DNA of 60,698 nt from a virus (taxonomy: Duplodnaviria > Caudoviricetes), in the IMG/VR virus record IMGVR_UViG_3300018481_000007, positions 1 to 60,698 of that record; one strand, written 5' to 3'. Under the pieces are notes generated by a model. That model searched no databases, was not told the DNA's origin, and worked only from the letters and a program-made list of their open reading frames with translations. This document shows positions 2,764 to 41,029 of the stretch, piece by piece. The translations under genes were made by a program, and so were the position numbers. Position 1 is the stretch's first letter; every line of letters starts with the position of its first letter.

Positions 2764-3093
2764 GTGAAGGCCACGGCGATACCGCAGCGGTCCCGGGATC
2801 TCGTACGGTCCCGGGACCGTCACCGGTGTGCTAGGTGCGCGGTCCCGGCACCGACCGGGGAGTGGCACCACCGTCGGTCGCGTTCGGTGCGCGACAGCCA
2901 CACCCACTGTGCCTGCAACGGGGTGTGGTTGTGCAGTCCCTGTCACCGCTGGGCTCATGCCAATCCCGAGGCTGCCCGGGAGACCGGCTTCATCCTGGCG
3001 CGCAACTGCGACACCCCCTGGCTGATGCCGTTCAGACACCCGCTGGACTGGCGGGCACCCGACTGCCAGGGTGGGTGGAGTGGGTCAAGTTAG
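2764..3093 (+). CDS. HNH endonuclease
   Basis: RDRHRCARC...WHHRRSR...NGVWLCSPCHRWAH. Confidence 0.85.
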   Translation: MKATAIPQRSRDLVRSRDRHRCARCAVPAPTGEWHHRRSRSVRDSHTHCACNGVWLCSPCHRWAHANPEAARETGFILARNCDTPWLMPFRHPLDWRAPDCQGGWSGSS

Positions 3094-3106
3094 GTTGCCT
3101 AAGTCA

Positions 3107-3451
3107 ATGAACGAGACCCAGTTCCTGCAGCGGGTGATCGACACCGCTAAGTTGTACGGCTGGCTGGTCTGCCACTTCCGCCCGGCGCGCACCGAGCGGG
3201 GGTGGCGGACCGCCGTCCAGGGGGACTCCGGCTTCGTCGACCTGGTGCTGGCCCGGGGTGGTCAGGTCATCCACGCAGAGTTGAAGGTGGGCACCAAGAA
3301 GCCCCGTCCCGACCAGGTGTCCTGGGGTCACGCGATCGGTGCGACCTACCGGCTCTGGTACCCCGACGACTGGGACGACATCCTGGTCGAACTCAGAACC
3401 CGTCACCCCAGCGCATCGGCCGACCGCGCCGCTCGTTCTCCGCGCGAGTAA
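3107..3451 (+). CDS. VRR-NUC-like PD-(D/E)XK nuclease
   Basis: ETQFLQRVID...GFVDLVL...AELK...Q..W pattern. Confidence 0.8.
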   Translation: MNETQFLQRVIDTAKLYGWLVCHFRPARTERGWRTAVQGDSGFVDLVLARGGQVIHAELKVGTKKPRPDQVSWGHAIGATYRLWYPDDWDDILVELRTRHPSASADRAARSPRE

Positions 3452-3653
3452 ACGCCAGAGCCCGCTTCCTGCTGTGCAGGTTGAGATCCAGGGCCGGTCC
3501 GAACCGCCCGGTGAGCCGGGCGTCGAAGTAGGCGGACTGCCACTCCGCACTCACCTGAGCGTCGAACGCCGCCTTGGCTCCGCTCAGCCACACCAGCCTC
3601 TCCAACGGGTCGTGGGGTGCGTCAGAGAAGTCGATGGTCAGCGCTTCGGTCAT
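3393..3653 (-). CDS. Hypothetical protein, probably leaderless
   Basis: Minus-strand codon bias; TACAGT -10 lies 7 nt before the ATG. Confidence 0.65.
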   Translation of the reverse strand: MTEALTIDFSDAPHDPLERLVWLSGAKAAFDAQVSAEWQSAYFDARLTGRFGPALDLNLHSRKRALAFTRAENERRGRPMRWGDGF

Positions 3654-3655
3654 GG

Positions 3656-3683
3656 TGGACACTGTACCTTTCTGCGGTAGAAT
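3656..3683 (+). promoter_or_regulatory. Sigma70-like promoter TGGACA-N16-TAGAAT, overlapping a divergent -10
   Basis: Lies immediately before ATG 3689. Confidence 0.55.
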
Positions 3684-3688
3684 GAGGT

Positions 3689-4291
3689 ATGCCACTGACC
3701 AACGCCCAGATCAAGCGTCTCCTCACCCCCGTCATCCCCTCCCGCGTCGAGCAGGTCCGGGGACAGTCCTACGTCCCGCAGTTCGAGGTGCGGGCCGAAC
3801 TGTCCCGGGTCTTCGGCTTCGGCAACTGGGACTCCTCCATCCACGACATGACCCTCATCTACGAGGAGCCGGAGGAGCGCGAGAACGGCAAGACCTACTG
3901 GAAGGTCTGCTACCGCTGCGCCTGCACCCTGACCATCCGCGACTACGACGGCAACGTCGTCTGCACTCAGACCGAGTGGCACGCCGAGGAGTCTGCACCG
4001 CAGCCCTCCCGTGGTGAAGCCCACGCCCTTGCCCTTACCTCGGTCGAGTCCTACGCCTTGCGCCGAGCCTGCATCAACCTCGGAGACACGTTCGGCCTGC
4101 ACCTGTACCGGAACGGCCAGTTGACCCCGCTGATCAAGGGGACGCTGCAGACCACCGACGACGAGAGCCCGCTCTACGACCCCCAGACCACCCCCACCCC
4201 GGTGCTGACCGAGGAGCAGAAGACCAACCTGGCGAACGCCCTGGGAGCGGTCGAGGTGCCTCAGGAGCCCGCTGAGAGCGTGCCAGCATGA
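3689..4291 (+). CDS. Rad52/Rad22-family ssDNA annealing protein
   Basis: SYV...VRAELSRVFGFGNWDS...A...VESYALRRACINLGDTFGLHLY. Confidence 0.85.
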   Translation: MPLTNAQIKRLLTPVIPSRVEQVRGQSYVPQFEVRAELSRVFGFGNWDSSIHDMTLIYEEPEERENGKTYWKVCYRCACTLTIRDYDGNVVCTQTEWHAEESAPQPSRGEAHALALTSVESYALRRACINLGDTFGLHLYRNGQLTPLIKGTLQTTDDESPLYDPQTTPTPVLTEEQKTNLANALGAVEVPQEPAESVPA

Positions 4292-4563
4292 GGGTCTCCG
4301 CGTACCTGATCGTCGAGCCGATCTATGACTACGCCGGGCAGCGGGTGGTGAGCGGAAAGATCACCGGGGTCCGGCAGCGCAAGCCCTCCTCGATGGACAA
4401 CGAGGCCCAGACGATCTGGCTGCACCTGGAGGTCCCCACCGAACTGTTCGACTCCGCCATCGCCGTCATCAACGTGACCGAGTTGCCGCCCCGCGAGATC
4501 GAGGGCGAGTCCGCCGGTGACAGGCTGCCGAAGGACGTTCCCTACGAGGAGACGCGGCGGTGA
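4288..4563 (+). CDS. Hypothetical protein
   Basis: ATGA overlap; codon bias. Confidence 0.7.
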   Translation: MRVSAYLIVEPIYDYAGQRVVSGKITGVRQRKPSSMDNEAQTIWLHLEVPTELFDSAIAVINVTELPPREIEGESAGDRLPKDVPYEETRR

Positions 4564-6507: not shown

Positions 6508-6578
6508 GGTGCTCCGTTCTAAGTACCTTCTATGTGCCGATCACTTCGCCGGCCCCCAACTGACTTAGACGACCTAAC

Positions 6579-7502
6579 TCAGTAGAGGATCGCCTGGACC
6601 GTGCCGGACACCGGAGTCCCTGCCATCACCGTGCCGTCGGTCAGTCGGTAGGCGGTACCCACGATCTTGTTGCTGACAGCGTTGACCATCGCCTTCCACG
6701 GGGAGGACCCGTGCTCGGTGAACTGAGCGGCGAGCACTCCTGACCGACCGGCCAACTCGGGGGTGCCGAGGATGTCGAAGGCCCCGAAGGCGTCGGTGGT
6801 CATGGTGAGTTGGAAGACCATCACCGTCGGCTGCAGACCATCGGACCACGGCCCCGACAGTTCGAGCATCGCATCGACGGCCTCCCAGCCGGTCTGGTTG
6901 GGCAGCAGCGACCAGACCGCGCCGGTCCAGTACCAGATGATCCCGGGCTCGGTGTCGAGGATCGTCAACTGGTTCAGCCCAGGTGTGGGCAGGGCTGCGG
7001 TGCGGGCCGCTGCGTCAACGAAGTGCTGGGTGACCGAGACCATGCCCTGGTCGGTCAGCCCGACGCCGGTGGCGAAAGTGCCGACCAGCCGGTTGGGCTC
7101 CGGCAGCAGACCCAGTGGCAGCCCGGCCGAGCCGTCCCCGGTCAGCGAGGTGTCGTGCAGCACCGCACCCGCCGGAGCCACGGTGGCCGCCTGAGCGACC
7201 CAGGCACTCAGCGCCGAGTCCCAGGCCAGCACCTGCCCGTTGACCGGGTTCGCCGCCTGCACGTCGGGGAAGTCATCCAGTTCGGCGGTCGAGGTGAAGG
7301 ACACCACCGGCGAGTAGGGGTCAGCCGTGGAGCCATCCCCGGTGACCAGCGTGGTGAAGGTCTTGTTCTGGCTGGACGTGAAGGCAATGTCCACGTCGAT
7401 GATCAACGGGTCCGACGGCGTGCCCGAGCCGGAGACGTCCGCCGCCCCGTGTCCGATGATCTGGCAGGCGCAGGTGCTCCCGCCGCAGCAACCCTTGGCC
7501 AT
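6579..7502 (-). CDS. Minor tail protein with Cys-rich N-terminus
   Basis: End of tail operon; GCCGGSTCAC; GSGTPSDP repeats. Confidence 0.75.
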   Translation of the reverse strand: MAKGCCGGSTCACQIIGHGAADVSGSGTPSDPLIIDVDIAFTSSQNKTFTTLVTGDGSTADPYSPVVSFTSTAELDDFPDVQAANPVNGQVLAWDSALSAWVAQAATVAPAGAVLHDTSLTGDGSAGLPLGLLPEPNRLVGTFATGVGLTDQGMVSVTQHFVDAAARTAALPTPGLNQLTILDTEPGIIWYWTGAVWSLLPNQTGWEAVDAMLELSGPWSDGLQPTVMVFQLTMTTDAFGAFDILGTPELAGRSGVLAAQFTEHGSSPWKAMVNAVSNKIVGTAYRLTDGTVMAGTPVSGTVQAILY

Positions 7503-7527
7503 CAGATCCCACCTCTCATTGTGTGCA

Positions 7528-8139: not shown

Positions 8140-8142
8140 GGC

Positions 8143-11100
8143 TCAGCCCCCTTCCGGTGTCAGGTCGGCGTCCGGGTCGTTGCCGCCGTTGGGTGCCGGA
8201 GAGAGCACCACGTTGACGGTCTCACCCTTCTCGGTGGACTCCACACTGATCGAGTCGAGTTTCTGCCACTGCAGCACCTGTCGGGGTGTGTTGATCGAGC
8301 GCAGCGGCAGCCAGACCCCCGGGATCAACTGCTGGAAGCCGATCCCGGCCTTGGGGGACAGGGTGGAGTTGTCCGGCACCCGCACGATCAGCGGAGCGGG
8401 CCAGCGACCGGCGATGTTGCGCCCCGCCTGGGCGATCAGCGTCTCCTGGGCCTTCGCCAGAGCCGCTGGGGTGAGGATCTCCGTCGACGCGGCCGAGGAG
8501 TCGCTGTAGGACGACGCCAACTGCTCGATCGGACCGTACGGGTAGGTCTTGGCTGGGACCTCGACGGCACCGGCCACCCCGGCGTTGTTGGTGACCGCGA
8601 AGTAGGTCGCCAACTGCATCCCGTACTCGGTCACGATGGGGGAGTCGGAGAAGTCGCCGTCCCGCAGTTCCGGCAGCCGCCCGATGGCCCGGTGGGTGTC
8701 CCAGAGCAGGATCCGCCGGCCCACGGTGGTGTAGTCGAGCCCGGCGGTGGCCGCCAGGTCGTCGACCTCCTCCCAGATCGTGCGGGACCAGTCCGCGACG
8801 ATCCGGGCCTGCTTCGCGTCGTCGGGGTACTCGATGGACGTCAGGTAGGGCAGCACGTTGGGGTCGTACGGGGCCAACCCCTGGATCAGCAACATAGTGG
8901 CTCGCTTGACCACGCTCAGCACACCGGTGCTCTGCTCGGGGATGCTGCCGGAGGCCTTCTGCACCAGCCGGTAGGAGTCGTTGTAGCCCTGCCGCATGAT
9001 CCGGCGGTAGGCGTAGGCCATCACGTCCTTGGCCTCGATCTCGACCGAGTTCTGGGTGTACGCGATCCGGGTGATGGGTCCCTCCCAGACCCGGACCCCG
9101 TCCCGGAAGATCACCAACTCGTGCATCCAGGTGCGGACCGAGCCGTACAACTGACCACAGTCGGCCGAGTAGCCGTTGGAGAAGGCGGTGGCGCTGGAGA
9201 TGTCGTCACGGACCCGGTTGAAGACCAGTCGCCCCATCGGCTCGATCTCCCCGAGCAGCTTCTGCCCGCCCTGCTCGTAGATGAACGCCCGGTAGGTGCC
9301 ACAGCCCAACGAGCCACCGGGGATGAGCACGTCGTCCGCCGAGGGCAGGGGATCGGCCGCCGCCCCGGGGGTGTTCAGGGCATAGAAGTGGAAGGAGTCA
9401 GACCAGCCCGAGGCCAGAGCCATGGCGGTGTCGTAGGTGCGGACCGCCCACTCGTAGGTGTAGTCGGCCGTGAAGGTGTCGGCCTGGATCGCCCAGAACG
9501 TGTCAGCCCCGGGGATGCCGGGGGTGGGTAGGCCGTTCAGTTGGATCCAGCCGTCGTTGGGACCCAGCACAGGGGCGGTCCCGGCGGTCACCTCCTTGGT
9601 GCGGCCCAGGGGCCGGTAGCGGAGGTCCGCCTTCTGCTGCCGGTCGGCGGTGTCGGGGTCGACGAACCGCCAGGAGAAGGTGATGGCGGCGTGGACGTCC
9701 AGAGCCGAGGCCTTAGGCGGACTAAGCAGGACCGGCGGCGAGTTCGTCGACTGCGACCGGAAGGTGAACAGCAGCGACCAGCCACCCCACTGGCTGCGGG
9801 CCGCGTCCCGGGTGCGGACCTGCCACTCCCAGAAGTAGTTGCCGGTGAAGGTGTTGGGGTTGAAGACCCAGAAGTTCTTCGACGACGACGGCGGTCCGGC
9901 GACCACCGGGGAACCGTTCTGGCCGGTGTAGGAGGTGGTGACCACCCAGGCACCGGGTGCGGTGGTCGAGGTCGCCGCCTTGCGGTACTGGAGTTGGAAG
10001 CCGGACTGGTAGTCCGACGGGTCCGGGTCGTTGTGGGTCCAGGTGAAGGTGGCCGAGGAGGTGGAGGGCAGCGTCATGCCGTTGCCCGTGTTGTTGACCG
10101 TCAGGCCCGTGGGCGCGGTCGGGGCACGGTCGGTGTAGAAGGTGAAGCCGCTGTAGGAGACCGAGTACATCCCCTTGGCGTCCTGCGAGTAGACCCGGAC
10201 GTAGTACATCGTGTTGAGCGCCAGCCCGGACAGGGTGGCGGTGGCCACCCTGCCGTTCGCGTGGTAGGTGACCCAGGGCGACCAGGCCGTCTTGTACGAG
10301 GCGAAGTTGCTGGTGGACGAGTAGAGCACCCTCATCCGGACTTTTTGCTTGTTGGTGTCGATCAGGTTGGCCGTGACCTTCACCGACGAGCCAGCCTTGG
10401 TCATCATCCCGTTGGTGACATCGACCCCGTTCAACTTGATGGTGCGCGGGATGGCCGGTGGCTGGTTCGCCGGGGCCGGGGTGACGTAGGTGATGGTCAC
10501 CGCGCCGTTGCCGGTACCGCCGGCACCCTGGGTGTTGGCCGCGCCGCTCAGACCACCGGTGAAGGACGAGCCACCGCCACCGCTGCCGCCGGGTGACTGA
10601 CCCGCCGCCGAGGCCCGGCCACCACCGCCACCGCGCAGACCACCACCGCCACCACCGCCACCGTGACCCGACCCGCTGGGCGGGGCACCACCGGCCGCTC
10701 CCGGGGACAGTGTCTGGTCCCCGGCGTTGGCGCCGTTGTACTTTGCGTTGGTCGGGGAGGCCCCGCCGTTGCCACCCTGGGTCTGGGTGCCACCGGTGGC
10801 GATCCCGGTGACGCTGCCGGTGCCGAACAGCGAGCCGTCGTGGCCCGAGGGACCACCGCCCGCACCACCGAGGGCCCCGTCACCGGAGTTGCCACCCGCA
10901 CCGCCCGCGACCGCCTTCAACGTGCCCGTGGTGGAGCCGATCCGGATGCAGGAGTAGCCGCCACCGCTCCAGCCGCCCCGGTTCCCGCTGCCCAGGCCGT
11001 TGCCGCCCTTGCCACCACCGCCGGAGACCGCCGCGCCACCAGTGGTGGTGCTGTTCGCCCGCCCCGCCTGTCCGACGTGGCAGTAGATCTTCTGGCCTGG

Positions 11101-12560: not shown

Positions 12561-12590
12561 GCACCCCTTCCCTTAGGTTGACTAAGCCGC

Positions 12591-15803: not shown

Positions 15804-15821
15804 GTCGCCTCCTTAGACCGT

Positions 15822-16118
15822 CTAAGCCCGCTGGGCCTGGTGCATGGCCATCGTGGCCATGAAGTCGGACGCCTCGTCCTCGGCCTGGAAGGGTGTCGGC
15901 TCGGCCTTCCGGGCCACCTGGTGGGGTAGCGGCTCGCTGAGCAGGGCGTCCCAGTCGGCCCGCTTCTCCGGCTCCACCCGCTGCACGCACCACCCGTAGA
16001 CCAGGTTCATGAACCGGTACGGGGGTTGGTGAATCAGGTCAAGGCTGGCGTACGCCGCGTCGACTTCTTCCCACCTCTCGGCGGCGATGACGTAGAGGCG
16101 GAGGCACTGGGGAAAGGG
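15822..16118 (-). CDS. Tail assembly chaperone, -1 frameshifted extension
   Basis: -1 frame is open from the slippery site to TAG at 15822-15824. Confidence 0.75.
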   Translation of the reverse strand, partial: PFPQCLRLYVIAAERWEEVDAAYASLDLIHQPPYRFMNLVYGWCVQRVEPEKRADWDALLSEPLPHQVARKAEPTPFQAEDEASDFMATMAMHQAQRA

Positions 16119-18365: not shown

Positions 18366-18384
18366 TGGTTAGGTCGCCTAAGGC

Positions 18385-22190: not shown

Positions 22191-22191
22191 G

Positions 22192-23109: not shown

Positions 23110-23380
23110 CGGTCTTCTCCACCGCCTGGGCGTACCGCTGCTTGGCAAGGGTGGCGTCGGTGCGCCCGGCGAGGAATCCAGCCAGCAGACCGATCAGGGT
23201 GTTCACCACGTCCGAGACGGCGTGGAAGCCCGCCGTGGTGTCCCGCTCGGGCACCCACAGTGTGACAATGAACAGCGCCATCCCGGAGGCCAGCACTGAG
23301 AAGCAGACGGTGCTGGCTATCACCAGGATCAGCAGGTCGCCCGTCGTCCGGTCGGCGAACCAGGGGCGACGCCGGATCAC
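23090..23380 (-). CDS. Putative holin
   Basis: Two TM segments; follows the lysin. Confidence 0.55.
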
Positions 23381-25077: not shown

Positions 25078-25643
25078 CACTCGGCCGCCCATCCGTCGAC
25101 CAACTGGGTGACCACGAACGTGCTGCCGTAGGGCCTGGTCTTCACCACATCGCCTTCTCCGCTGGGCTCGTCCCGGCCGTTGAGTTCGCCGGACGCGATG
25201 ACGTACACCGTGTCCCCGACCTTGACACCGTTCGGGTTGTCCGGCTCGCCACCGGCGGCCAGGTAGGACAGCCGGATGCCCGCGATGTCCTCAGTCCAGC
25301 CCTGGTAGGTCAGGTTGCCCCAGTCCCGGTCGATCTCGTCGATGCTCACCGAGGCGCACTTGCCGTTGCTCTGCTGGTCGGTGGAGCGGACCATGCCACC
25401 ACCCAGCGACACCACGGCGTGGCCGTACCCGGAGCCGCCCCCGGTCCAGAACACGGGGGCACCCTCGGGTGGTGTTCGGTCACCCTTGTGCTTGTACTTG
25501 GCAGCGTTCCACTGAGCGGAGGCGTCGGGGTACTGGTGCGGGGACTCCAGCCACTCCTGGGTCTGCCACAGGCACATCCCTACCGAGCAGGTGGTGGTCG
25601 CCTTGGCGTTGTCCATCGCCTCCTTAGCCGACTGCACCACCAT
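25077..25643 (-). CDS. CHAP/NlpC-like cell-wall peptidase with truncated SH3b
   Basis: GMCLWQT...ASAQW...PPEGAPVFWTGG..YGHAVVSLGGG..RSTD. Confidence 0.8.
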   Translation of the reverse strand: MVVQSAKEAMDNAKATTTCSVGMCLWQTQEWLESPHQYPDASAQWNAAKYKHKGDRTPPEGAPVFWTGGGSGYGHAVVSLGGGMVRSTDQQSNGKCASVSIDEIDRDWGNLTYQGWTEDIAGIRLSYLAAGGEPDNPNGVKVGDTVYVIASGELNGRDEPSGEGDVVKTRPYGSTFVVTQLVDGWAAE

Positions 25644-30771: not shown

Positions 30772-32207
30772 GAGACCGCTCGCAGGTGCCGGGGGGCCCG
30801 GCGCAGCAGGCTGTTCGGGCTGGCGATGGCTGCGGGCTCCAGCCGCTTCAACAGGTCGGTGCCGCCGTGCACCAGGGCGTCCACCCGGTTCGGGGAGGGG
30901 CCCTCACCGGGCACCCACGAGGTCTGCTCGTCCTCCAGTTCGCCCAGCGCGCCCTGCTTGCCCACGTGGCTGACCATCTTCCGTTCGTAGCGGGCCACGA
31001 TCGGCTCCGCCCGGATCTCCTTGCCCCGGCGGGAGTCGACCAGGATGATCCGGGCACCGCCGTAGCCGGAGGTCTCCAGGGTGTGCTTGACCATCTCGCC
31101 GCCGTAGTTCTTCTCGGCCACGATGGCGTCCGCTCCGTAGGCCTCGTACAGCCCGTTGGCCTTGCTCGCCCACTGCCCCGGGGAGTACCGACCGGTGGCG
31201 TCGTGCAGCACGTACAGGTGCTTGTCGTAGCCGACCCCGATGACGATGATGCCGGTCTCGTCGGAGGACTTGTTCTTCGACCCGGCCGGGTCCACGGCGA
31301 CCACGATCCGCTGCAGCGGCGGGGCCTCGTCGACCCACTGGAACATGTCCCAGGACCACATCGCCCCCTCGACGTCTTCAAGGATCTCGCCGTGCAACTC
31401 CTGGCGACCGAGGCGGGTGCCCTCGAACCGGTCCAGCACGGTGCGCTTGAACGCCTCCGCGAGGTTGCCGATGTTGGCGTAGGTGCTGACCCGGCGGGTG
31501 ATGGTCAGCGGGTCCTTGATCTGCTCCTTCATCCACTTCGTCGGCTTCGGCGTGGTGGTGGCCACGATCTTGGGCCGGTCACCCATCCGCAGCCCCAACT
31601 GCATGTTCGACCAGACCTCGTCCACCAGCGGGTAGTGGGCGGGCTCATCGGCCCAGACGAAGCCGGACTGGGGGCCACGCAGGCGGTCCGGCTCCTCCGC
31701 GCTGAAGCCCTGCGCGATGCAGCCGTTGGGCCAGGTGAGCCGCTTCTTGGAGGGCTCGTACAGCGGGCGTCTGCCAGGAGGAGACGTGGCCAGGATCCCT
31801 GATACACCCTCGACCATGGTCTCGCGCAGGTCGGGCCCGGTGGCTCCGATCAGGAAGATGCGGGGGGTGTGCTCGGTCATCTTGTGGGTGATCTCGGAGC
31901 CGGTCCGCGACTTGCCCGCACCGCGACCACCGGAGAACATCAGCGTCAGCCAGTTCGCCGAGGCCATGTTCGGGGGGCGCTGGTCGACCCGGGCGTGCGG
32001 CCAGTCCCAGGTGCCGTCGGAGTGCGGGTTGCCGTCGCAGGTCCTGATCTTGCAGAAGAACGGGTGCCAGTCGGCCTTCTCGAAGCCACGCAGCATGTCC
32101 AGGGCCTTCTCCTGGAACTCCGGCTTCCACTGCTTGAACATCCCGATCAACTCAGGTGGTACACCTGACAGGTCAGGCGATGTCGGGCTAGGCACGCTGC
32201 GCACCAT
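30768..32207 (-). CDS. terL: Terminase large subunit
   Basis: GGRGAGKS Walker A; LRGPQ..WADE; TTTP; VAVDPA; AEKNYGG; SPNRVDA. Start uncertain (32141-32273). Confidence 0.95.
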   Translation of the reverse strand: MVRSVPSPTSPDLSGVPPELIGMFKQWKPEFQEKALDMLRGFEKADWHPFFCKIRTCDGNPHSDGTWDWPHARVDQRPPNMASANWLTLMFSGGRGAGKSRTGSEITHKMTEHTPRIFLIGATGPDLRETMVEGVSGILATSPPGRRPLYEPSKKRLTWPNGCIAQGFSAEEPDRLRGPQSGFVWADEPAHYPLVDEVWSNMQLGLRMGDRPKIVATTTPKPTKWMKEQIKDPLTITRRVSTYANIGNLAEAFKRTVLDRFEGTRLGRQELHGEILEDVEGAMWSWDMFQWVDEAPPLQRIVVAVDPAGSKNKSSDETGIIVIGVGYDKHLYVLHDATGRYSPGQWASKANGLYEAYGADAIVAEKNYGGEMVKHTLETSGYGGARIILVDSRRGKEIRAEPIVARYERKMVSHVGKQGALGELEDEQTSWVPGEGPSPNRVDALVHGGTDLLKRLEPAAIASPNSLLRRAPRHLRAVS

Positions 32208-32684: not shown

Positions 32685-32695
32685 TCTTAGGCCGC

Positions 32696-33238
32696 CTAAG
32701 CCGAGTCGGTTTCTTCGACGATCTCGGCGTCGTAGATGTCGTCCTCCTCGACCAGCGGAACCATTGTGGCGGTCATCCGCAGCACCCAGTCCTCCAGTTC
32801 GCTCTGGGTCGGTGTGTGCACCACCATCTCGGTCGGAGCGTTCAGACCGAACAACTTGTTGTGGTCGGAGATCAGTTCCCTAGCGCGGGACTGGGCAATC
32901 ATCTGCTCCGGGTTGTCCGGGTCGATGGCCTTGGTCCAGACCCCTCGCAGCAGCCGGTCAAGCCGAGCCCCGGCCATCGCCCGCATCTTGACCTTGTCGT
33001 CCTCGGTGGCCAGTTGGCGGACCAGTGCGCGCTCCACCGCCAACTTCGCCTGGCGAGGGGTGGGGTAGCCCAGGGTCTGCGCGATCTCGGCCCAGGAGGC
33101 TCCGGACATGGACAGCGACAGGGCGGCGTCGGCCTTGCGGTTGCGCTCCCGCAGGACCCTGCCCTTGTCGCCTCCCTTGATGTCCCCCCGCAGGTCGACC
33201 ACACCGGTCGGATGGGAGGAGTCCTGCCTGGTCGCCAT
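32696..33238 (-). CDS. Terminase small subunit (HTH)
   Basis: ALSLSMSGASWAEIAQTLGY...RLDRL...KLFGLNAP; lies upstream of TerL. Confidence 0.75.
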   Translation of the reverse strand: MATRQDSSHPTGVVDLRGDIKGGDKGRVLRERNRKADAALSLSMSGASWAEIAQTLGYPTPRQAKLAVERALVRQLATEDDKVKMRAMAGARLDRLLRGVWTKAIDPDNPEQMIAQSRARELISDHNKLFGLNAPTEMVVHTPTQSELEDWVLRMTATMVPLVEEDDIYDAEIVEETDSA

Positions 33239-33355: not shown

Positions 33356-34498
33356 ATGGCGCGCTGCAGTTGTGGAAACGCCGCCTGCTCGTGCGTCATC
33401 AAGGGTGCCCCCGAGGGTGGTGTGACGGTCACCGGGTCAGGCTCCCCGGAGCGGCCCTACCTGCTCTCCCTGACCTCCGGCGGTGAGCCGCTGGACTCCC
33501 TGGAGATGGTCGACTCCTCGACCGTGACGTGGGCAAGATCGGGTGCAGGCACCCCGGCCGACCACCGCCGCTACATCGCCACCGCCGATGTCGGGATGCG
33601 CGAACTGACCGACGTCTCCAAGACCGACGTGCCGATCCCCGGCGACGTGGTCCAGTGGAACGGGACCGAGTGGGTGTTCGGCGCCCCCGGGGCCACCGCC
33701 GTCCCGGTCTCGGGCATCTTCGGCACCGCCCCGCTGAACCTGTACGGGGCCAATCCCCTGATCGGCCCGTCGATCTACACTGACTCCAACGGCCAGATCC
33801 GGAGCGCGCCCCGCACCATCATCTCGGGCACCTTCGCCCCCACCGACCCGATCACCTCCTACCCGCTGGGTGTCTCGGTGATGACGCTGCTCACCGGGGC
33901 CAACGCCAGTGCCTGGCCGTTCGGGTTCTCGGCCACGGTCACCACCCACCACCGCTACGAGGGTGGCCCCACTGACAACGCGGGCTGGCAGGTCTGGTCC
34001 CGCAACAGCCCGACCTCAGTGCAGATGATGATGCGAACCTCCAGCGGTGGGGTCTGGTCGCCGTGGACCTTCGTCGGTGGGCAGCCCCCGTACTACGCGG
34101 CCTACAAGAGCACGGCCCAGGCGATGCCGGTGGCGAACACCTGGTACACCACGACCTTCGAGAACGTCGAGACCAGCGAGGGCGGGTTCCTCTACTCCGG
34201 CGGTGTGTTCACGGTGCCGATGGCGGGCAAGTACCAGATCAACTTCGCCTCCCACATCCAGAACACCACCACCACCTCCAGCGTCACCCTGGGTCTGGTG
34301 AAGAACGGGGTCTCGATCGCCGACTCCTCCAACGGTGCGGTCGGCAACAACAAGTCCTTCGACATGAACCGCCTGGTGAAGTGCGCGGCCGGGGACACGC
34401 TCTACGCCCGCATCAGGACCAACACGGCGGGCACCACCATGTACGGCGCGGCCGGGGCCCGCTACACCTACATCGACATCACCCTGGTCGGAGGCTGA
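33356..34498 (+). CDS. Tail fibre/receptor-binding protein 1 (Cys-rich N-terminus, C1q-like C-terminus)
   Basis: MARCSCGNAACSC; GVFTVPMAGKY...GDTLY. Confidence 0.7.
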   Translation: MARCSCGNAACSCVIKGAPEGGVTVTGSGSPERPYLLSLTSGGEPLDSLEMVDSSTVTWARSGAGTPADHRRYIATADVGMRELTDVSKTDVPIPGDVVQWNGTEWVFGAPGATAVPVSGIFGTAPLNLYGANPLIGPSIYTDSNGQIRSAPRTIISGTFAPTDPITSYPLGVSVMTLLTGANASAWPFGFSATVTTHHRYEGGPTDNAGWQVWSRNSPTSVQMMMRTSSGGVWSPWTFVGGQPPYYAAYKSTAQAMPVANTWYTTTFENVETSEGGFLYSGGVFTVPMAGKYQINFASHIQNTTTTSSVTLGLVKNGVSIADSSNGAVGNNKSFDMNRLVKCAAGDTLYARIRTNTAGTTMYGAAGARYTYIDITLVGG

Positions 34499-34499
34499 C

Positions 34500-35621
34500 G
34501 TGCCCAGATGCGGCTGCGGAGCCACCTGCTCCTGCCTGATCGTCGCCGGGGAAGGCGTCCAGGTCGACGGCATCGGCACCATCGAGAACCCCTACGAGAT
34601 CTCCTCCGACGCCTCCGAACTGCTGGAGCGGATCGAGTTCGTCGACACCCCCTCGGTGGACTTCACCGTCACCGGCATCGGCACCCTGATCACCCCGATG
34701 AGCGTCCAGGCCGAGGCCACCCTGGCGCTGACCGACCTGACCGACGTGCAGGGCACCCCGGGCAACCAGCAGGTGCCCGTCTGGGTCGACGACCACTGGG
34801 AGTTCCAGGACCAGACCGGCGGCGGCGGTGGACTGTCTCCGTCTGGTACCTGGGACATCTCACCGCTGGATATCTACGGCACCGACGACCTGATCGGCCG
34901 CGAGGTCTACATCGACTCCAATGGACAGTTGCGGGCCAAGCCGGACCTGGTGCCGACTCACCTGGTGGCGGACCTGGGCTCGACGTACCCGACTGGTCTG
35001 TCGATCTTCTACCTCACCGCTGCCCTGTCCGGTCCGTGGCCTCCCGCCGGGGCGACGGCAGCCACCGTCGTCACCACCAAGTCGACCAGCACCACCCAGT
35101 ACGGCGTGACGCAGTGGTGCTACTCCGCCACAGCCGGGACCACCAGAGCGTGGGTCCGTACCGGAACCAATGTTGCTTGGAATGCCTGGTTGGAGGTGGC
35201 CACCTCCGCACCCGCACCGCGCACGTTGCGGCGCAAGTCAACCAGCCAGGCACTGACCACCGCGAGCACCTACTACACGATCACCTTCGACGTCGACGGG
35301 GCCAATGGCACCGGCATCGGCTACTCCGGCGGTGTGTTCACCGTGCCCGAGGCCGGGGTCTACCTGATCAACCCGCTGGTGCTGGTGCAGGGTTCGGGGG
35401 CGCCGACCATCCGGGTGCGCATCATCGCCGCCGGGCTGAATCTCGGCGAGGAGACGGTGATCGGCGGCAGTGGCAACAACACGTTCACCCAGTCCCGCTC
35501 GATTCGGCTCGCCGCTGGGGAGACGATCTACCTGGAGGCACAGTCCACCCTCACCGGGTTCTCCGTCACCGGCTCGACGCCGGCGTACACCATGATCGAC
35601 ATCACCCGCATCTCCGCCTAG
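34500..35621 (+). CDS. Tail fibre/receptor-binding protein 2 (paralog of 33356)
   Basis: MPRCGCGATCSC; GVFTVPEAGVY...GETIY. Confidence 0.7.
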   Translation: MPRCGCGATCSCLIVAGEGVQVDGIGTIENPYEISSDASELLERIEFVDTPSVDFTVTGIGTLITPMSVQAEATLALTDLTDVQGTPGNQQVPVWVDDHWEFQDQTGGGGGLSPSGTWDISPLDIYGTDDLIGREVYIDSNGQLRAKPDLVPTHLVADLGSTYPTGLSIFYLTAALSGPWPPAGATAATVVTTKSTSTTQYGVTQWCYSATAGTTRAWVRTGTNVAWNAWLEVATSAPAPRTLRRKSTSQALTTASTYYTITFDVDGANGTGIGYSGGVFTVPEAGVYLINPLVLVQGSGAPTIRVRIIAAGLNLGEETVIGGSGNNTFTQSRSIRLAAGETIYLEAQSTLTGFSVTGSTPAYTMIDITRISA

Positions 35622-36201: not shown

Positions 36202-36704
36202 CCTTCATCCCGACACCCAAGGCCGACCTGATCCCCCTGCCGCAGTTGGACGGCGCCATCGTCGCGGTCACCCAGCAGGTGCTCAGTCGGCTGCACCACG
36301 CCGAGCAGGCGGCCGACTGGGCAGCCTCGGCCATCGCCGACCTGTACGAGGACCAGCCCGGTGGTGGTGGCATCTGGGAGTGGTCGGGACAGCCGTTCGG
36401 CACCGACCCCGGAGTGGGCGCGCTGCTGGTCACCGTGGCCTCCGGCAGCAACCGCACCATCGTCTTCGCCAAGTCCGACGCCGACGGCCTGACACCCTCG
36501 CTGGACCTGCTCACCCAAGGCTCCACCCTGGTGCTCACCGACGACCCGGCAGCCCCACCGGTGACCGCGTTCCGTCAGTACGTGGTGGCGAGTGACCCGA
36601 CCGACCACGGCACCTGGGTGTCGATGCTGGCGGTCCGGGTGGCGACCTTCGGCACCCAGGACACCCCCACCGTGGGCACCCGGGTGCGGCTGCTGATCCG
36701 GTGA
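36198..36704 (+). CDS. Hypothetical protein, possibly virion-associated
   Basis: GTGA overlaps; codon bias. Confidence 0.7.
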   Translation: MTFIPTPKADLIPLPQLDGAIVAVTQQVLSRLHHAEQAADWAASAIADLYEDQPGGGGIWEWSGQPFGTDPGVGALLVTVASGSNRTIVFAKSDADGLTPSLDLLTQGSTLVLTDDPAAPPVTAFRQYVVASDPTDHGTWVSMLAVRVATFGTQDTPTVGTRVRLLIR

Positions 36705-37561
36705 CCGAGTGCCTCGACCTCTACTGCGGCGGCGGTGGGGCCGGGGAGGGCTACCGACAGGCCGGGTTCACCATGACCGGGGTGGACCGGCAGCGGCGGC
36801 AGACCGGCTACCCACCGGGGACCCTGCTGGTGACCGACGTGCGGGAGGTCTTAGACGACCTAAGGTTCCTGCGCCGCTTCACCTTCATCCACGCCTCGCC
36901 GCCCTGTCAGCCGTTCACCCGGGCCTCCCACCTGCGGACCGCTCAGGGCAAGGTGACCACCACCGAGGACCTGGTCGCCTACACCCGGGAGCGGCTGGTC
37001 GCCAGTGGGGTGCCGTGGGTGATGGAGAACGTGCCGGAGGCCCCGATGCGGCGGGACCTGCTGCTCTGCGGGTCGTTCTTCCCCGAGTGCTCGATCACCG
37101 ACGCGACCGGGAGACGATGGCTGCAGCGGCACCGCATCTTCGAGTTCGGGGGTGGGGCGAGGGTGCCGTTCCAGGCTCGGTGCAGGCACGCCCAGGGCCG
37201 GAAGCTTGACACTGTGATGATGCGGCGCCGGCCACTGGGGGTCTACCACAAACTGGACGACGCGATCCCCTCCGGTGGGCAGACGGCGGCCACCCTGGCG
37301 GACGCGAGAGCGCTGATGGGCATCGGTTGGATGTCGTTCGAGGCGCTGGCGGAGGCGATCCCTCCGGCCTACACCCGCTACATCGGGTCAGCGCAACTCA
37401 AACAGGTACGCCAGCCGCTGCCGGTCGTTGTCCCCGGGGACGTCGAACCAGGTAGCCATCTCGTCACCGGTGAGGTGCACGCTGACGGTGTAGCCGGGCT
37501 CGATCGGGGTGGGCTCGGGAACCGGCGGGGGCTCGACGTAGCCGGTGCCCAGCAGCCGTAG
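36701..37561 (+). CDS. C5 cytosine DNA methyltransferase 1
   Basis: DLYCGGGG; ASPPCQ; MENV; RHRIFE; EAIPPAYTRYIG. Confidence 0.85.
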   Translation: MTECLDLYCGGGGAGEGYRQAGFTMTGVDRQRRQTGYPPGTLLVTDVREVLDDLRFLRRFTFIHASPPCQPFTRASHLRTAQGKVTTTEDLVAYTRERLVASGVPWVMENVPEAPMRRDLLLCGSFFPECSITDATGRRWLQRHRIFEFGGGARVPFQARCRHAQGRKLDTVMMRRRPLGVYHKLDDAIPSGGQTAATLADARALMGIGWMSFEALAEAIPPAYTRYIGSAQLKQVRQPLPVVVPGDVEPGSHLVTGEVHADGVAGLDRGGLGNRRGLDVAGAQQP

Positions 37562-37927
37562 TTCGGTCTGCAGCAGCAGGTCGATCTGGGGGGCGAGCAG
37601 CCCCAGGTCCACGATGGCCAGCCGAGCCAGTTCGTTGTCCCCCAGCAGGATCCGCAGCGCGGTGGTGTCGTCCACGTCCAGCCAGACCACCGGGATCCTT
37701 AGGCTGCCTAACCTCAGACAGGCGGCGTAGGTGGTGTTCCCCGCCAGGATGTAGCCGGTGCTCCGCTGCACGTAGACCGGCCGGTACATGCCGTTGATCT
37801 CGATGGACTCGGTGATCGCGTCCTCGTCCCCGGAGGAGGGGTTGTCCGGGTGTGGCCGGACCATCTCGACCGACTCGAACAGCGGCTCCAGGGAGGGGTG
37901 GAACCTGACGTGGCCGGAGGTGATCAC
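37388..37927 (-). CDS. ParB-like N-terminal (ParB/Srx) domain protein
   Basis: PHPDNP..GD...I.ESI...G..RPV.V....ILAGN. Confidence 0.8.
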   Translation of the reverse strand: MITSGHVRFHPSLEPLFESVEMVRPHPDNPSSGDEDAITESIEINGMYRPVYVQRSTGYILAGNTTYAACLRLGSLRIPVVWLDVDDTTALRILLGDNELARLAIVDLGLLAPQIDLLLQTELRLLGTGYVEPPPVPEPTPIEPGYTVSVHLTGDEMATWFDVPGDNDRQRLAYLFELR

Positions 37928-38010: not shown

Positions 38011-38021
38011 GCCGGGTGGTC

Positions 38022-38654
38022 TCACGGGATGCTCCTGCCGATGTGCTCGGTGTACGCCGGGGGGATGGCCTGGGCCAGGCTCCTCTTGCTGGTGATCCAG
38101 GGGGCGTCGAGCGCCTGCTGCCACTGCTCCAGGGTGCCCTTGTAGCCGCCACTGTGGCCCCAGACCCCGGACATCGAGCCCTTGATCCGTCGGCCGTGCC
38201 GCCACCCGTCCACCCGGCCGACGTGCTTGGGGTGCGGCGGGCGGGGGACCGGGAAGGACACCTCGAAGTAGCGGTGCCGGTAGGTGGAGAGACCGAACAT
38301 GGCCCCGCACAGGGTGATGTCGGGGCGCAGGTTGGCCCCCTTGACGTTCTCCACGATGGTCGGCAGCGGCAGGGCGGCGAGCATCCGGCGGGTCTGCGGC
38401 ACCAGGTCGGTGTGCCCGGTGGTGTTGCCCCAGGTGCCGGTGGTCAGGGTGGAGGAGGCCTGGCACGGCGGGGAGGCGTGCACGGCGTCGAACTCCATCC
38501 AGTGCTCCTCGCAAAACTCCAGGGCGTCACCGAGCACGAACGTGAAGGGGTAGTCGGGCTGATTCTCGTTATCCACACCGGTCACCGTCCAGCCAGCCCG
38601 GTGATAACCGACCGAGCACCCCCCGGCACCGCAGAAAAGGTCCAACAACCTCAC
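38022..38654 (-). CDS. C5 cytosine DNA methyltransferase 2
   Basis: DLFCGAGG; ASPPCQ; VENV; RHRYFE; QAIPPAYTEHIG. Confidence 0.9.
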   Translation of the reverse strand: MRLLDLFCGAGGCSVGYHRAGWTVTGVDNENQPDYPFTFVLGDALEFCEEHWMEFDAVHASPPCQASSTLTTGTWGNTTGHTDLVPQTRRMLAALPLPTIVENVKGANLRPDITLCGAMFGLSTYRHRYFEVSFPVPRPPHPKHVGRVDGWRHGRRIKGSMSGVWGHSGGYKGTLEQWQQALDAPWITSKRSLAQAIPPAYTEHIGRSIP

Positions 38655-38839: not shown

Positions 38840-38840
38840 C

Positions 38841-39197: not shown

Positions 39198-39484
39198 CGC
39201 AGCCCTCCCGGCACGATGCAGGCGCCCTGGTGGCCGGGAGGCTGTGTGCATCCGGGCGGACAGGGCTCCCCGTTGGCGTCGACCTGCCCTCCCGGGTTGA
39301 CCTGAGCGGCCAACTCGTCGCACATCCGGCTCGCGTCCTCCTCGCTGTCGTGCTCCCACTGCCAGGAGGTCTTCTCCAGGCACCGCAGGATCACCCGCCA
39401 GTAGTCGCCATCATCGAGGTGCTCGTACCAGATCCCGACCACCTTGTCGGGGTTGAGCCACATGTCCTTCACGCGAACCAGCAT
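39194..39484 (-). CDS. Hypothetical protein
   Basis: Coupled overlaps. Confidence 0.65.
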   Translation of the reverse strand: MLVRVKDMWLNPDKVVGIWYEHLDDGDYWRVILRCLEKTSWQWEHDSEEDASRMCDELAAQVNPGGQVDANGEPCPPGCTQPPGHQGACIVPGGLR

Positions 39485-39774
39485 CACTCGTCCCTCATCT
39501 CGTCCATCAGGTCCAGCACCAGCCGGAAAGCGTCCCGGGTGGCCTTGCGACAGGCCCGCTCCTGCCTGCTCATCGGGCTCCTGAGCGCCTGAACCTCGGC
39601 GTAGGCCAGGGCCTCGATGCGGTCGTGCAGCATCACCTGGTCGACCACCAGCCTGCGGGCCACGAAGGCCATCGGGGCGTGGCAGTTGCCGCACAGGGGT
39701 CCGGAGTTGCCGTGCATCACGATCTCGCCGCCGTCGTGGGTGCAGAACTCGGGCTCCTGCAGTACGTCAGCCAT
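39484..39774 (-). CDS. Hypothetical protein
   Basis: GGAGGAG SD; CxxC. Confidence 0.65.
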   Translation of the reverse strand: MADVLQEPEFCTHDGGEIVMHGNSGPLCGNCHAPMAFVARRLVVDQVMLHDRIEALAYAEVQALRSPMSRQERACRKATRDAFRLVLDLMDEMRDE

Positions 39775-39889
39775 GAGACTCCTCCATCTCGACCAGGGTC
39801 CACAGCCACGACTCGGCCTGCTCGGGACTGATGCGGCGGTGGGCGAGCATGTCCAGCACCCAGCAGACCTGGGTCTCGAAGGGGCTCAT
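39767..39889 (-). CDS. Small hypothetical protein
   Basis: ATGA overlap. Confidence 0.5.
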   Translation of the reverse strand: MSPFETQVCWVLDMLAHRRISPEQAESWLWTLVEMEESHG

Positions 39890-40122
39890 GCCTGGTCCAT
39901 CTCGCTGGCCAGCAGCAACTCGCACACCGCACAGACCTCCATCGTGTCGTTGTCGGGGGTGTAGGTCGCCATCCCCAGCCCGCAGCGGGCGCACCGACCG
40001 GAGTACGCCGGTGTGCCGAAGGTCATCCGCACCCCCTGGTGCCAGATCACGATCAGCACCACCGCACCCTCGTGGGTGGTGATCTCCCACTGGCCCTCAC
40101 CGCTGATCTGCTCGACGCTCAT
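39886..40122 (-). CDS. Zinc-ribbon protein
   Basis: CARC...CAVC. Confidence 0.6.
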   Translation of the reverse strand: MSVEQISGEGQWEITTHEGAVVLIVIWHQGVRMTFGTPAYSGRCARCGLGMATYTPDNDTMEVCAVCELLLASEMDQA

Positions 40123-40301
40123 CGGGGCACCACCTCGAACCCTTCCTCGACCAACCAGGCGCGGATCTGGTTGAGGCTCATCTGCTTGTCCCTCAGTTCG
40201 ATCCAGGCCCACAGGGCTGCCTTCACCTTGGTCGCCTGGCTTCCCTGCACCTCCAGGAACGCGATGTCAGCGAACCAGGTGTCGATCTGGGGCTCAGACA
40301 C
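40119..40301 (-). CDS. Hypothetical protein
   Basis: GGAGGA SD. Confidence 0.6.
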   Translation of the reverse strand: MSEPQIDTWFADIAFLEVQGSQATKVKAALWAWIELRDKQMSLNQIRAWLVEEGFEVVPR

Positions 40302-40533
40302 GTCCGTCCTCCTCCGCGTCCTCAGCCACCTGGAGGGCGAAGTCCAGACCGGCGGGCTGCGAGGGCTCGTGCCCCCACCACCGGTCCCGGGCTCGCACCG
40401 CGTGCTCCCAGTCGATCAGCACGTTCTGGAGGAAGTGGGCCAGGATGAAGTCGGGGGTGTCGGAGCGGTTCTCGACACTGTGCCGGTTCAGGAGAGCCCG
40501 GAGTTCGTCGAGGAAGGTGGGCTGCTCAGCCAT
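40294..40533 (-). CDS. Hypothetical phage protein (LLNRHSVENRSDTPDFILA motif)
   Basis: Recognisable conserved small phage motif. Confidence 0.7.
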   Translation of the reverse strand: MAEQPTFLDELRALLNRHSVENRSDTPDFILAHFLQNVLIDWEHAVRARDRWWGHEPSQPAGLDFALQVAEDAEEDGRV

Positions 40534-40796
40534 CAGAACGACACCTCATGCCTGCTCAGGGACCGGCCGCAGTTGAAGCACCGGGCAGTCCCTGGACGCG
40601 GCTTCCAGCCCTTCGGGCACTCAGGGTCGGGACCCTCGACGGTGGGGAGTGCGGTGGTCCGCTGGGCAGCCTCGACCGCCTCCTTGACCCGGGCCTCGAT
40701 CAGGTCTCTGATCCATCGCACGCGGGCGACCGACCCTCGCTCCTCGTCCACCCTGGCGAGAGTCTTCTCGCTCAGTGTCAGTCTGATATCAGGCAT
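40533..40796 (-). CDS. Ribbon-helix-helix DNA-binding protein with C-terminal Cys motif
   Basis: IRLTLSEKTLARVDEERG..ARVRWIRDLIE; leaderless, TACACT lies 7 nt upstream. Confidence 0.7.
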   Translation of the reverse strand: MPDIRLTLSEKTLARVDEERGSVARVRWIRDLIEARVKEAVEAAQRTTALPTVEGPDPECPKGWKPRPGTARCFNCGRSLSRHEVSF

Positions 40797-40821
40797 GTAC
40801 CTAAGTGTACACGTCTGTACC
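40796..40821. promoter_or_regulatory. Three TGTAC(C/A) repeats at 10-bp spacing over the RHH promoter
   Basis: Copies at 40796, 40806 and 40816. Confidence 0.6.
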
Positions 40822-41029
40822 TCTTGGTATCACTGCCTTAGGTCCAAACTGCACTTGACTTTGGCCTCAACCAAACTGCCGGATGGGTACAGGGCTGGAT
40901 TGCGTAGGGGGGCCGGCGATTCGGCCGGAAGCCGTACTAGTGGGGGGTCCGAGCTCGGGATCCGTACGAACCGACCGCGATTAGGTCACCTAACCGCCCG
41001 TTTCACGCTTAATACTGAGTGGACTTGAA

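Follow-up and report, generated by a model that had tools for sequence, protein, structure and literature searches.

The soil phage record IMGVR_UViG_3300018481_000007 (Duplodnaviria; Caudoviricetes), the whole 60,698 bp of which form the window analyzed here, carries 31 dispersed copies of a 13-bp palindrome, TTAG-N5-CTAA, which are crowded over the early genes, sparser elsewhere, and locally evenly spaced. This spacing had been noted in a preliminary description of the sequence; the observation is confirmed and extends to the whole phage family, in which the positions of the sites are conserved while their sequence is rewritten in each lineage. The even spacing is real and appears to be a selected property of the array. 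We favor, with a probability of about 0.45, the explanation that the palindromes are dispersed operators of a co-evolving, phage-encoded ribbon–helix–helix (RHH) regulator acting on transcription, and propose a small RHH-like protein encoded at the head of the leftward operon as the candidate binder.

Copies, placement, and spacing of the palindrome

The 31 exact copies compare with 0.02 expected from 100 shuffles, and allowing one mismatch still returns 31 sites (1.48 expected), that is, zero one-mismatch copies. All eight arm bases are invariant in 31/31 sites, forming a perfect inverted repeat, and the centre varies, as would be expected if a dimer recognizes the two half-sites in double-stranded DNA. 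The core TTAG[G/T]CAACCTAA is common to 15 sites, and the arms lengthen to CTTAG...CTAAG in 18 of the 31. In a genome that is 88.6% coding, the centres of 25 sites fall in non-coding DNA. Eleven sites end 2-30 nt ahead of a start codon, with the remainder located 57-136 nt upstream or within genes; many overlap the preceding gene's stop codon, with AAGGAG following approximately 5 nt later. The 17 early genes have one site per 0.59 kb, and in the 10.7 kb that follow there is one per 1.78 kb. Outside these two regions there is one site per 3.4-6.3 kb, whether the mean gene size is 311, 451, or 1080 bp, and gene boundaries, the explanation that the preliminary description had set against a selected distance, therefore do not fully explain the spacing. 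All sites listed below read TTAG-N5-CTAA, with the strand unassigned.

3090-3102: reversed core (GTTGC); 4 nt before the ATG of an endonuclease-like gene, 3107-3451(+)
6565-6577: 1 nt past the gp16 stop (6579-7502, -), at the late operon end where two operons converge; boundary motif-bearing in G001 and G006
9713-9725: intragenic, in the 1032-aa minor tail gene; encodes LSPPK
12573-12585: between the tape-measure stop and the gp19 start (15 nt); boundary occupied in 7/8 motif-bearing genomes
15813-15825: 9 nt upstream of the tape-measure gene start
18369-18381: 3 nt past the major tail protein stop; boundary also used in G005 and G010
22078-22090: 136 nt upstream of the major capsid gene; 130-132 nt upstream in G003 and G004
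26664-26676: intragenic, in the 871-aa MuF-fusion gene (LSRPK), in the linker ahead of the C-terminal domain; G006 carries a motif of its own, offset by 21 alignment columns
32687-32699: overlaps the gp42 stop, 2 nt upstream of the gp41 ATG; boundary used in G003 (G005 and G010 nearby)
36851-36863: within the methyltransferase-like open reading frame (ORF) 36701-37561(+)
37699-37711: within the ParB_N-like gene 37388-37927(-)
40981-40993: control region; shortly before the predicted rightward promoter and 185 bp upstream of the start of the RHH gene
41133-41145: leader of the first rightward gene; 75 nt past the predicted -10 hexamer
42979-42991: core-consensus; 77 nt past a predicted promoter, 18 nt before the ATG at 43010
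43201-43213: overlaps the stop of 43010-43204; right end of the gene cassette absent from soil variants
43333-43345: intragenic (LSQPK), in gene 43239-43757
44421-44433: 17 nt ahead of the start at 44451
44753-44765: overlaps the stop of 44451-44756
45437-45449: intergenic, early
46396-46408: overlaps the stop of 46154-46399
47069-47081: followed by AAGGAG; ATG 17 nt downstream
47791-47803: 45 nt past the best predicted SigA-like promoter (47718-47746)
47906-47918: 19 nt ahead of the start at 47938
48782-48794: 20 nt ahead of the start at 48815
49652-49664: 13 nt ahead of the start at 49678; boundary used in G003, G001, and G006
51784-51796: overlaps the stop of 51332-51787
53069-53081: after the gene for a single-stranded DNA-binding protein (SSB); boundary used in G003; breakpoint of a soil-variant indel 3 nt beyond
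54572-54584: 110 nt past a predicted promoter, 30 nt before gp86; a site before gp86 also in G001, G003, G004, G005, and G007
55447-55459: 106 nt upstream of the primase-helicase gene; same place used in G003
57167-57179: overlaps the primase-helicase stop; boundary used in G003 and G004
59760-59772: just past the stop of 59432-59758

The 12 positions previously listed between 3090 and 40993 all carry the palindrome, and the 11 gaps between them are exactly as first described. The same holds for the gaps of under 1.1 kb at 43-50 kb (measured, 115-1088 bp), those of 0.9-2.6 kb at 50-60 kb (875-2593 bp), and the distance of 3933 bp from 59760 to 3090, which is obtained after removal of the 95-bp terminal duplication (4028 bp in the record). 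Sites 9713 and 26664 are indeed intragenic, in the minor tail and MuF-fusion genes, and split would-be gaps of 6008 and 10609 bp. A parS-like site was also said to lie within the largest gap; the 16-mer is present at 28960-28975 but differs from the parS consensus at two positions, and 6/100 shuffles match alike. This 16-mer lies in the portal gene, and no ParA gene was found in the window (PF13614 and PF01656, zero matches; controls matched in 14/14 and 14/14 genomes).

Over the segment on which the preliminary description was based (3090-40993), the coefficient of variation (CV) of the gaps is 0.356 (P = 0.0006 versus uniform placement); over the whole circle it is 0.78 (P = 0.11), the lack of significance being due to the density gradient. 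We corrected for the choice of segment by taking the minimum CV over all runs at three run lengths (6, 8, and 11 gaps), with random thinning of gene-start positions at matched local density as the null. The minimum CVs were 0.120, 0.148, and 0.263, respectively, with P values of 0.002, approximately 0.0003, and 0.0008. A second measure that a smooth gradient does not affect, the adjacent-gap ratio, comes to 0.552; a Poisson process would give 0.386 (P = 0.002), and gene starts thinned at random 0.463 (P approximately 0.04). By both measures, the sites are more evenly placed than expected from either random or gene-boundary placement, the comparison that the preliminary description had called for.

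To place the array in its family context, we scanned ten related records in their entirety (G001-G010, G000 being this genome), taken from 36 loci found by capsid homology. TTAG-N5-CTAA occurs only once in total across the ten records. Instead, G001, G003, G004, G005, G006, G007, G010, and several further loci carry AT-rich palindromes of their own, 13-17 bp in length and present in 10-41 copies in the most complete records, including TCTAGT-N-ACTAGA (33-36 copies), GTTCACT-N-AGTGAAC (38), GTTAAGG-N3-CCTTAAC (12-13), CTTAGT-NN-ACTAAG (16), and TTCAGT-N3-ACTGAA (15). Two loci of 13.3 kb (L098) and 17.8 kb (L082) hold 22 copies each of their own palindromes. The motif of G001 consists of two palindromic GTTAAC hexamers 10 bp apart, an architecture unlike that of the other relatives. 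G002 has two TTAGCC-NN-GGCTAA palindromes in the control region (four when counted with the shorter TAGCC-NN-GGCTA arms), and a palindrome search of its record revealed no dispersed array; the word GGGGTCGAC in this genome was dismissed as a coding-sequence word rather than a site. No such palindrome was found in the most distant relatives, G008 and G009. An IMG/VR search with the core motif plus the ribosome site yielded two stretches, both with too few sites to be relatives.

The positions of the sites in the late region coincide with homologous gene boundaries common to the relatives. A local palindrome occupies the boundary between the tape-measure gene and gp19 in 7/8 genomes, the major-tail/gp25 boundary in three, and the terminase/gp39 boundary in four. 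In G000, G003, and G004 a site precedes the capsid gene by 130-136 nt, and that of G006 is located between the capsid gene and gp32. Nearly all 13 sites of G003 pair with a G000 site by their flanking genes. Within gp37, the intragenic sites of G005 and G010 fall at an identical alignment column, and those of G000 and G006 lie 21 columns apart in another linker; within gp18, the sites of G000 and G005 are 66 columns apart. Since these columns are not identical, long genes gained sites independently, in linkers.

Dense-to-sparse progression along the genome recurs in G004 and G005, and local evenness is widespread: 8/8 genomes exceed the thinned-gene-start null with exact sites and 7/8 with one-mismatch sites added (P = 0.0003 in G004, 0.001 in G005, and 0.01 in G006, and 0.002 in G007 when its one-mismatch sites are included), although these tests are not independent, because the genomes share positions. 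The one-mismatch value for G001 was disregarded as an artefact of offset duplicates, which arise because its motif comprises two hexamers 10 bp apart. The largest gap measures 5.1-6.6 kb in six genomes with different palindromes (G000, G004, G005, G006, G007, and G010, the last a partial record) and exceeds 10 kb in G003 and G001. With respect to the turnover of sites under conserved spacing sought in relatives by the preliminary description, the relatives have their own palindromes, local evenness, and shared positions; G002 is sparse, and G003 and G001 have gaps of more than 10 kb. Selection on the inter-site distance, as originally proposed, is plausible in view of the evenness, the bounded gaps of the six genomes, and the independently gained intragenic sites, with the same three genomes standing against it.

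A candidate regulator and competing explanations

The most likely binder of the palindrome is encoded immediately beside the control region. It is put forward as a candidate on the strength of covariation and two orphan half-sites:

40533-40796 (-): gene for the 87-aa RHH-like candidate binder, starting MPDIRLTLS; first gene of the leftward operon; apparently leaderless, with TACACT ending 7 nt before the ATG
40800-40842 (strand unassigned): two everted orphan CTTAGG half-sites (40800-40805, minus; 40837-40842, plus), directly upstream of the RHH start codon

There are 32 CTTAGG hexamers in the genome (7.5 expected); 30 belong to sites, and the other two lie within 45 bp upstream of the RHH start codon. 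In G002, G003, G004, G005, G007, and G010, the operon that faces the control region begins with a homologous gene; the family is also present in further loci, with tandem paralogues in L098, G004, and G007. The RHH alignment being too variable to seed a locus search, the ParB-like gene was used as the anchor. Alternating residues of the RHH strand covary with the palindrome in three replicated classes: RxD/ExRxS/A pairs with TCA(G/C)T palindromes in three loci, VxN/TxRxS with TTAGT palindromes in two, and S/TxT/PxKxN with CTGT-NN-ACAG in two. This covariation is independent of the backbone. The ParB-like proteins of L091 and L098 are 91% identical, yet their palindromes and RHH strands differ, and the motif class therefore does not follow the backbone.

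Support for the RHH fold of the 40533-40796(-) product is weak but consistent. The family profile matched NikR (E = 0.044) and a CopG-family regulator (E = 0.084) in the PDB, with RHH proteins accounting for 8/9 matches, and a paralogue in G004 passes the RHH_1 cut-off. In the AlphaFold model, an extended segment (residues 1-9) is followed by helices at 10-20 and 25-48, with a predicted local distance difference test (pLDDT) score of 85-96 over residues 1-50; the predicted homodimer of the RHH domain scored 0.39, compared to a mark of 0.42.

Three other proteins were considered. The ParB_N-like gp49 (37388-37927, -; 179 aa) was rejected as the binder, given that it does not covary with the motif in L091 and L098; it matches the ParB N-domain only (Pfam E = 4.4e-4, below the cut-off; PHROG, 7.8e-24; Spo0J, E = 8.8e-4). 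We set aside gp86 (54615-54902), which is always preceded by a site but shows no DNA-binding match and is conserved regardless of motif class. The first rightward protein (41220-42149) could still be the binder. Its AlphaFold model has a mean pLDDT of 50, its profile has no PDB match at E ≤ 1, and its matches in the Atlas were limited to hypothetical proteins of viruses, plus a DUF3102 lead at 0.88. A protein search recovered three homologues, none of them named; its homologues in G002 and G003 are linked by weak similarity only; and two metagenome scans and one viral scan for relatives of the gene returned zero loci.

The link to transcription comes from promoter predictions, which are consensus matches only, and from the orientation of the sites. 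Each of the four SigA-like promoters predicted between 40 and 58 kb is followed by a site in the leader, 45-110 nt past the -10 hexamer, as is the sole SigA-like promoter predicted in the first 20 kb of G004; on the late strand, no SigA-like promoter was predicted. The orientation of the central bases follows transcription by 14:1 in this genome, 11:1 in G007, and 8:0 in G001; it also does so in G003 and weakly in G004, and G005 has no bias (17:17). The palindrome itself was rejected as a promoter, the distance to the start codon varying from 2 to 136 nt and the SigA-like promoters lying upstream of the sites, not on them. It was likewise rejected as a methyltransferase target, the two methyltransferase-like genes not being among the families common to at least 6/11 genomes. 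The preliminary description had argued against promoter control alone. Most sites are indeed not at promoters. Against a strict physical need stand the 25/31 non-coding sites, the 11/31 ending within 30 nt of a start codon, and the late-region boundaries shared with relatives.

Under the regulator reading, the RHH protein would bind as paired dimers, one dimer per TTAG/CTAA arm, and the palindromes would serve as high-affinity binding sites in promoter leaders and at gene heads. The bound protein may then act on passing transcription as a roadblock or insulator, by analogy with the stoperators of Cluster A phages. Silencing would be tightest over the promoter-proximal early genes, and elsewhere one block per few kilobases would suffice to halt long stray transcripts. 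A new site would be most useful in the middle of the longest gap, which could produce both the gradient and the even spacing. We infer all three elements of this scheme, namely, RHH binding, its action on transcription, and coverage as the selected trait.

Several observations weigh against it. Pfam RHH_1 was matched by 4/17 homologues, all weakly (best E = 0.01), the protein of the window matched zero Pfam families at E ≤ 0.05, and Foldseek found no PDB match to its model at E ≤ 0.001. Covariation is not proof of binding, because the motif and the RHH gene could be co-inherited as one recombining module. A fifth predicted promoter (3656-3683) has no nearby site. A symmetric roadblock would not predict the orientation bias of the central bases, and G005 shows none. 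Finally, a lysogenic state requiring genome-wide silencing is unsupported, because no tyrosine or serine integrase was detected in the 11 related genomes (PF00589 and PF00239, 0/11; controls matched in 14/14 and 12/14 genomes) and no ParA in the window.

The trait under selection may be either regulatory coverage or physical distance. The preliminary description leaned toward looping, DNA entry, or translocase blocks, and regulatory coverage explains the spacing at least as well. A physical or architectural role, whereby a bound protein loops or bridges domains of a few kilobases, spreads locally, or blocks a translocase or nuclease, and the inter-site distance is itself selected, appears unlikely to us, as does its specific form in which bound RHH complexes and palindromes constitute a genome-wide ruler, with limited-range bridging, looping, or short-range silencing and a site kept every 5-6 kb. 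With such a ruler, lineages could rewrite all sites when the specificity of the binder changes and create intragenic sites to hold the spacing. The 8-gap run (CV 0.148), the 3.4-6.3 kb per site across regions with mean genes of 311-1080 bp, the largest gaps of 5.1-6.6 kb under six different motifs, and the independent intragenic sites in the same two long genes are all in its favor, and so is the Cluster O phage Corndog, in whose record we counted 34 sites of an unrelated palindrome with the same gradient and local evenness (adjacent-gap ratio 0.545, P = 0.003). The Corndog authors judged a role in transcription initiation unlikely in the part of their text available (PMC4351075), and KorB on plasmid RK2, as described in excerpts of PMC11790492, illustrates that dispersed 13-bp palindromes can load a sliding clamp. 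However, G002 has just 2-4 palindromes, two of them in the control region, and gaps of more than 10 kb are tolerated in G003 and G001; even coverage is therefore not essential for packaging, entry, or replication in the family. The sites are also tied to non-coding gene heads (25/31 here and 35/35 in G004), and the ParB_N-like gp49 lacks the GERRxR motif (the position reads GNTTYA) and does not track the palindrome; no ParA was found. We regard it as very unlikely that the evenness is a mere by-product of sites being confined to intergenic gaps that fit 13 bp or to inherited boundaries, with regularity following from gene sizes. The 3240-bp gap is indeed the tape-measure gene itself, 6/6 intergenic late sites are at boundaries that relatives also use, the adjacent-gap ratio alone is marginal here against thinned gene starts (P approximately 0.04), and the P values of the relatives, whose genomes share positions, are not independent; but the selection-corrected tests against gene-start thinning give P values of 0.0003-0.002, most genomes beat that null (7/8, or 8/8 with exact sites), and the two intragenic sites break up the 6008- and 10609-bp intervals.

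An element acting in RNA, namely, a transcript hairpin 5' of the ribosome-binding site that stabilizes, processes, or controls translation of the downstream message, is decidedly unlikely. It would account for the 11/31 sites located 2-30 nt before a start codon, typically approximately 5 nt ahead of AAGGAG, for the longer CTTAG...CTAAG stem possible at 18/31 sites, for the 14:1 orientation of central bases, and for the site in the 5' leader of 4/4 promoters predicted at 40-58 kb. Yet stems are invariant, loops variable, and compensatory stem changes zero, the reverse of structural RNA. The AU-rich stem of four to five pairs is weak, five sites lie within reading frames, where cleavage or a ribosome block would be harmful, site 6565 sits where operons converge, G005 lacks orientation bias, and Rfam returned zero matches on the genome. 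Highly improbable, in our estimate, is that each site plus ribosome-binding unit provides a short homology for the gain and loss of cassettes through the RecT-like and RecE-like proteins that the phage encodes. Contigs from three soil runs of one study do lack gene 43010-43204 exactly between two units of site plus Shine-Dalgarno sequence (region 43007-43231), and in the same variants 53085-54456 (gp84-gp85, 1372 bp; region 53084-54457) is replaced by 41 other letters from 3 nt past site 53069. The 7 nt shared at the deletion joint, however, belong to the ribosome-site spacer GGAGCAA and not to the palindrome. Recombination linkers would neither keep eight bases invariant around a free centre nor place sites within genes, the RHH covariation would be left unexplained, and Cluster O repeats coincide with few if any indels according to the available text of PMC4351075.

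Arrays of dispersed palindromes are known in actinophages, and this uncultured family resembles a natural experiment: at least ten related genomes with different palindromes often at the same places, one genome with almost none, and one protein whose strand changes with the motif. It names a testable binder and allows a simple recognition code, as well as spacing versus gene position as the selected trait, to be tested. If the coverage idea is true, it would explain the early-to-late thinning of the arrays both here and in Corndog; if the operator-repressor pairs are orthogonal, they could be used as regulatory parts for high-GC bacteria; and if the sites instead act as a ruler, the similar Corndog array points to a possibly general, hitherto unrecognized organization of large actinophage genomes.

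Gene layout and neighboring features

The record is complete, its final 95 bp being identical to the initial 95 bp, as in a circular assembly with a 95-bp overlap. The GC content is 66.7%, and our own gene-calling script yielded 96 genes; a tRNA scan of the genome found zero genes, and no RNA run is listed among the sequencing runs holding the phage. A rightward early/replication operon extends from 41.1 kb across the record end to 6.3 kb and encodes SSB, a primase-helicase, a RecT-like recombinase, and a RecE-like exonuclease, whereas the leftward virion operon, from 33.2 to 6.3 kb, encodes the terminase, portal, MuF-fusion protein, endolysin, capsid, major tail, tape measure, and minor tail proteins. 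Between 33.3 and 40.8 kb lie fibre-like genes, two methyltransferase-like genes, the ParB_N-like gene, and a leftward block of small genes. The capsid protein has at most 47% identity to that of any cultured phage, with 877 matching records, mostly of actinophages. DNA similarity to cultured phages is confined to 137-140 bp of the terminase gene in four Arthrobacter phage records, with zero matches in the early region.

The endolysin gene, 23377-25092(-), interrupts the block of head genes, with the MuF-fusion and capsid genes on either side. Two neighboring genes at 33356-35621(+), which run counter to the virion operon and whose products end in weakly matching BclA_C/C1q-like domains, probably encode fibres or receptor-binding proteins. 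The methyltransferase-like ORF 36701-37561(+) converges with the ParB_N-like gene 37388-37927(-), the two overlapping by 174 nt, and the second methyltransferase-like gene lies at 38022-38645(-). A small gene at 3393-3695(-), its window coordinates being guessed from position, runs antisense within the rightward operon next to the RecT-like gene; its homologues (e.g., G004 31034-31285, -) are very strongly conserved in six relatives (profile E down to 1e-48).

Other repeated words accompany the palindrome. Four direct repeats CGGTTTC[C/T]T[A/T]CC, 27 bp apart, lie at 42618-42710 in a gene-poor 860-bp stretch between the first rightward gene and the early cluster, and could be origin iterons or sites of another regulator. 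The word GTCAATGAA, or GTCAA..AA.GTCA, occurs at 42817, 42853, and 47770 (also at 3103 and 47479), directly upstream of two predicted SigA-like promoters and adjoining site 3090, and may be the target of a second regulator. The ribosome-site word AAGGAGCAACC is found seven times (43219, 44439, 45535, 47087, 47924, 48800, and 60004) and, being common to G002 and G003 as well, is independent of the palindrome.

Comparison with known systems

Two groups of actinophage motifs and one repressor family share single features with the array. The conserved inverted repeats (CIRs) of phiC31, a temperate Streptomyces phage, comprise approximately 18 short motifs bound by a large repressor, and the start-associated sequences (SAS) of Cluster K mycobacteriophages, which are mentioned in PMC4351075, are asymmetric and, as far as is known, always adjoin start codons. 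Like CIRs and SAS, the palindrome is a multi-copy short motif at gene heads in an actinophage genome; unlike the SAS of Cluster K, only 11/31 sites lie within 30 nt of a start. The operators of RHH repressors (Arc, Mnt, CopG, and the NikR N-domain) are short inverted repeats read by paired dimers. The candidate resembles these repressors in its small size, predicted extended N-terminus plus two helices, and profile matches to NikR and a CopG-family regulator, albeit with weak scores. To our knowledge, RHH repressors control one or a few promoters and not some 30 sites genome-wide.

Plasmid RK2 is approximately 60 kb in size and has 12 KorB sites. Its KorB operators (OB) are 13-bp palindromes with TTAG/CTAA arms and, in the oligonucleotide of that study, the core TTTAGCGGCTAAA, dispersed and capable of silencing over kilobases; KorB itself, a CTPase clamp of the ParB family, has a DNA-binding domain of its own (excerpts of PMC11790492). 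The phage sites share the arms and the dispersal with KorB operators but differ in arm spacing (N5 versus N3), and the ParB_N-like protein of the phage, unlike KorB, has no arginine motif, nor does it covary with the palindrome.

Stoperators of Cluster A mycobacteriophages and Cluster CA Rhodococcus phages, as far as the available texts describe them, comprise 20-36 dispersed 13-14-bp sites (PMC5559632, PMC13313380, PMC6550527, PMC9283540), which are intergenic or overlap gene ends and at which the bound repressor stops elongating polymerase (PMC5559632, PMC13313380, PMC6550527). In Cluster A, their positions are syntenic and their sequence tracks repressor specificity (PMC6550527); the words "spaced" and "spacing" do not appear in the available part of that paper. 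Stoperators are asymmetric, strictly oriented with transcription, and bound by a monomeric two-domain repressor, in temperate phages with an integrase or parABS (PMC5559632, PMC13313380, PMC6550527). The 31 dispersed, mostly non-coding 13-bp sites described here, with boundaries shared between genomes that have different palindromes and an RHH strand that covaries with them, are similar to stoperators in these respects. They differ in that the arms are symmetric in 31/31 sites and only the centre is oriented (14:1), neither an integrase nor ParA was found, and an RHH-like protein is the candidate binder.

The closest published case is the 17-bp repeat of Cluster O phages such as Corndog, present in more than 30 copies with invariant inverted arms and a variable centre, and denser toward one end. 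Many copies are intergenic and some lie within genes, and the phages have no integrase and encode a protein with a ParB-like domain; in the available text of PMC4351075, the function of the repeats is given as unknown, with neither an orientation bias nor a covariation-backed binder reported. The array of the present phage matches this pattern in its invariant arms, variable centre, more than 30 copies, and greater density in one part of the genome. It differs in sequence, the Corndog motif being TGTTCGG-N3-CCGAACA, and in lineage, the capsids being unrelated (the capsid matches listed do not include Corndog), as well as in placement: approximately one-third of the Corndog sites lie in coding DNA, compared to 5-6 of the 31 sites here.

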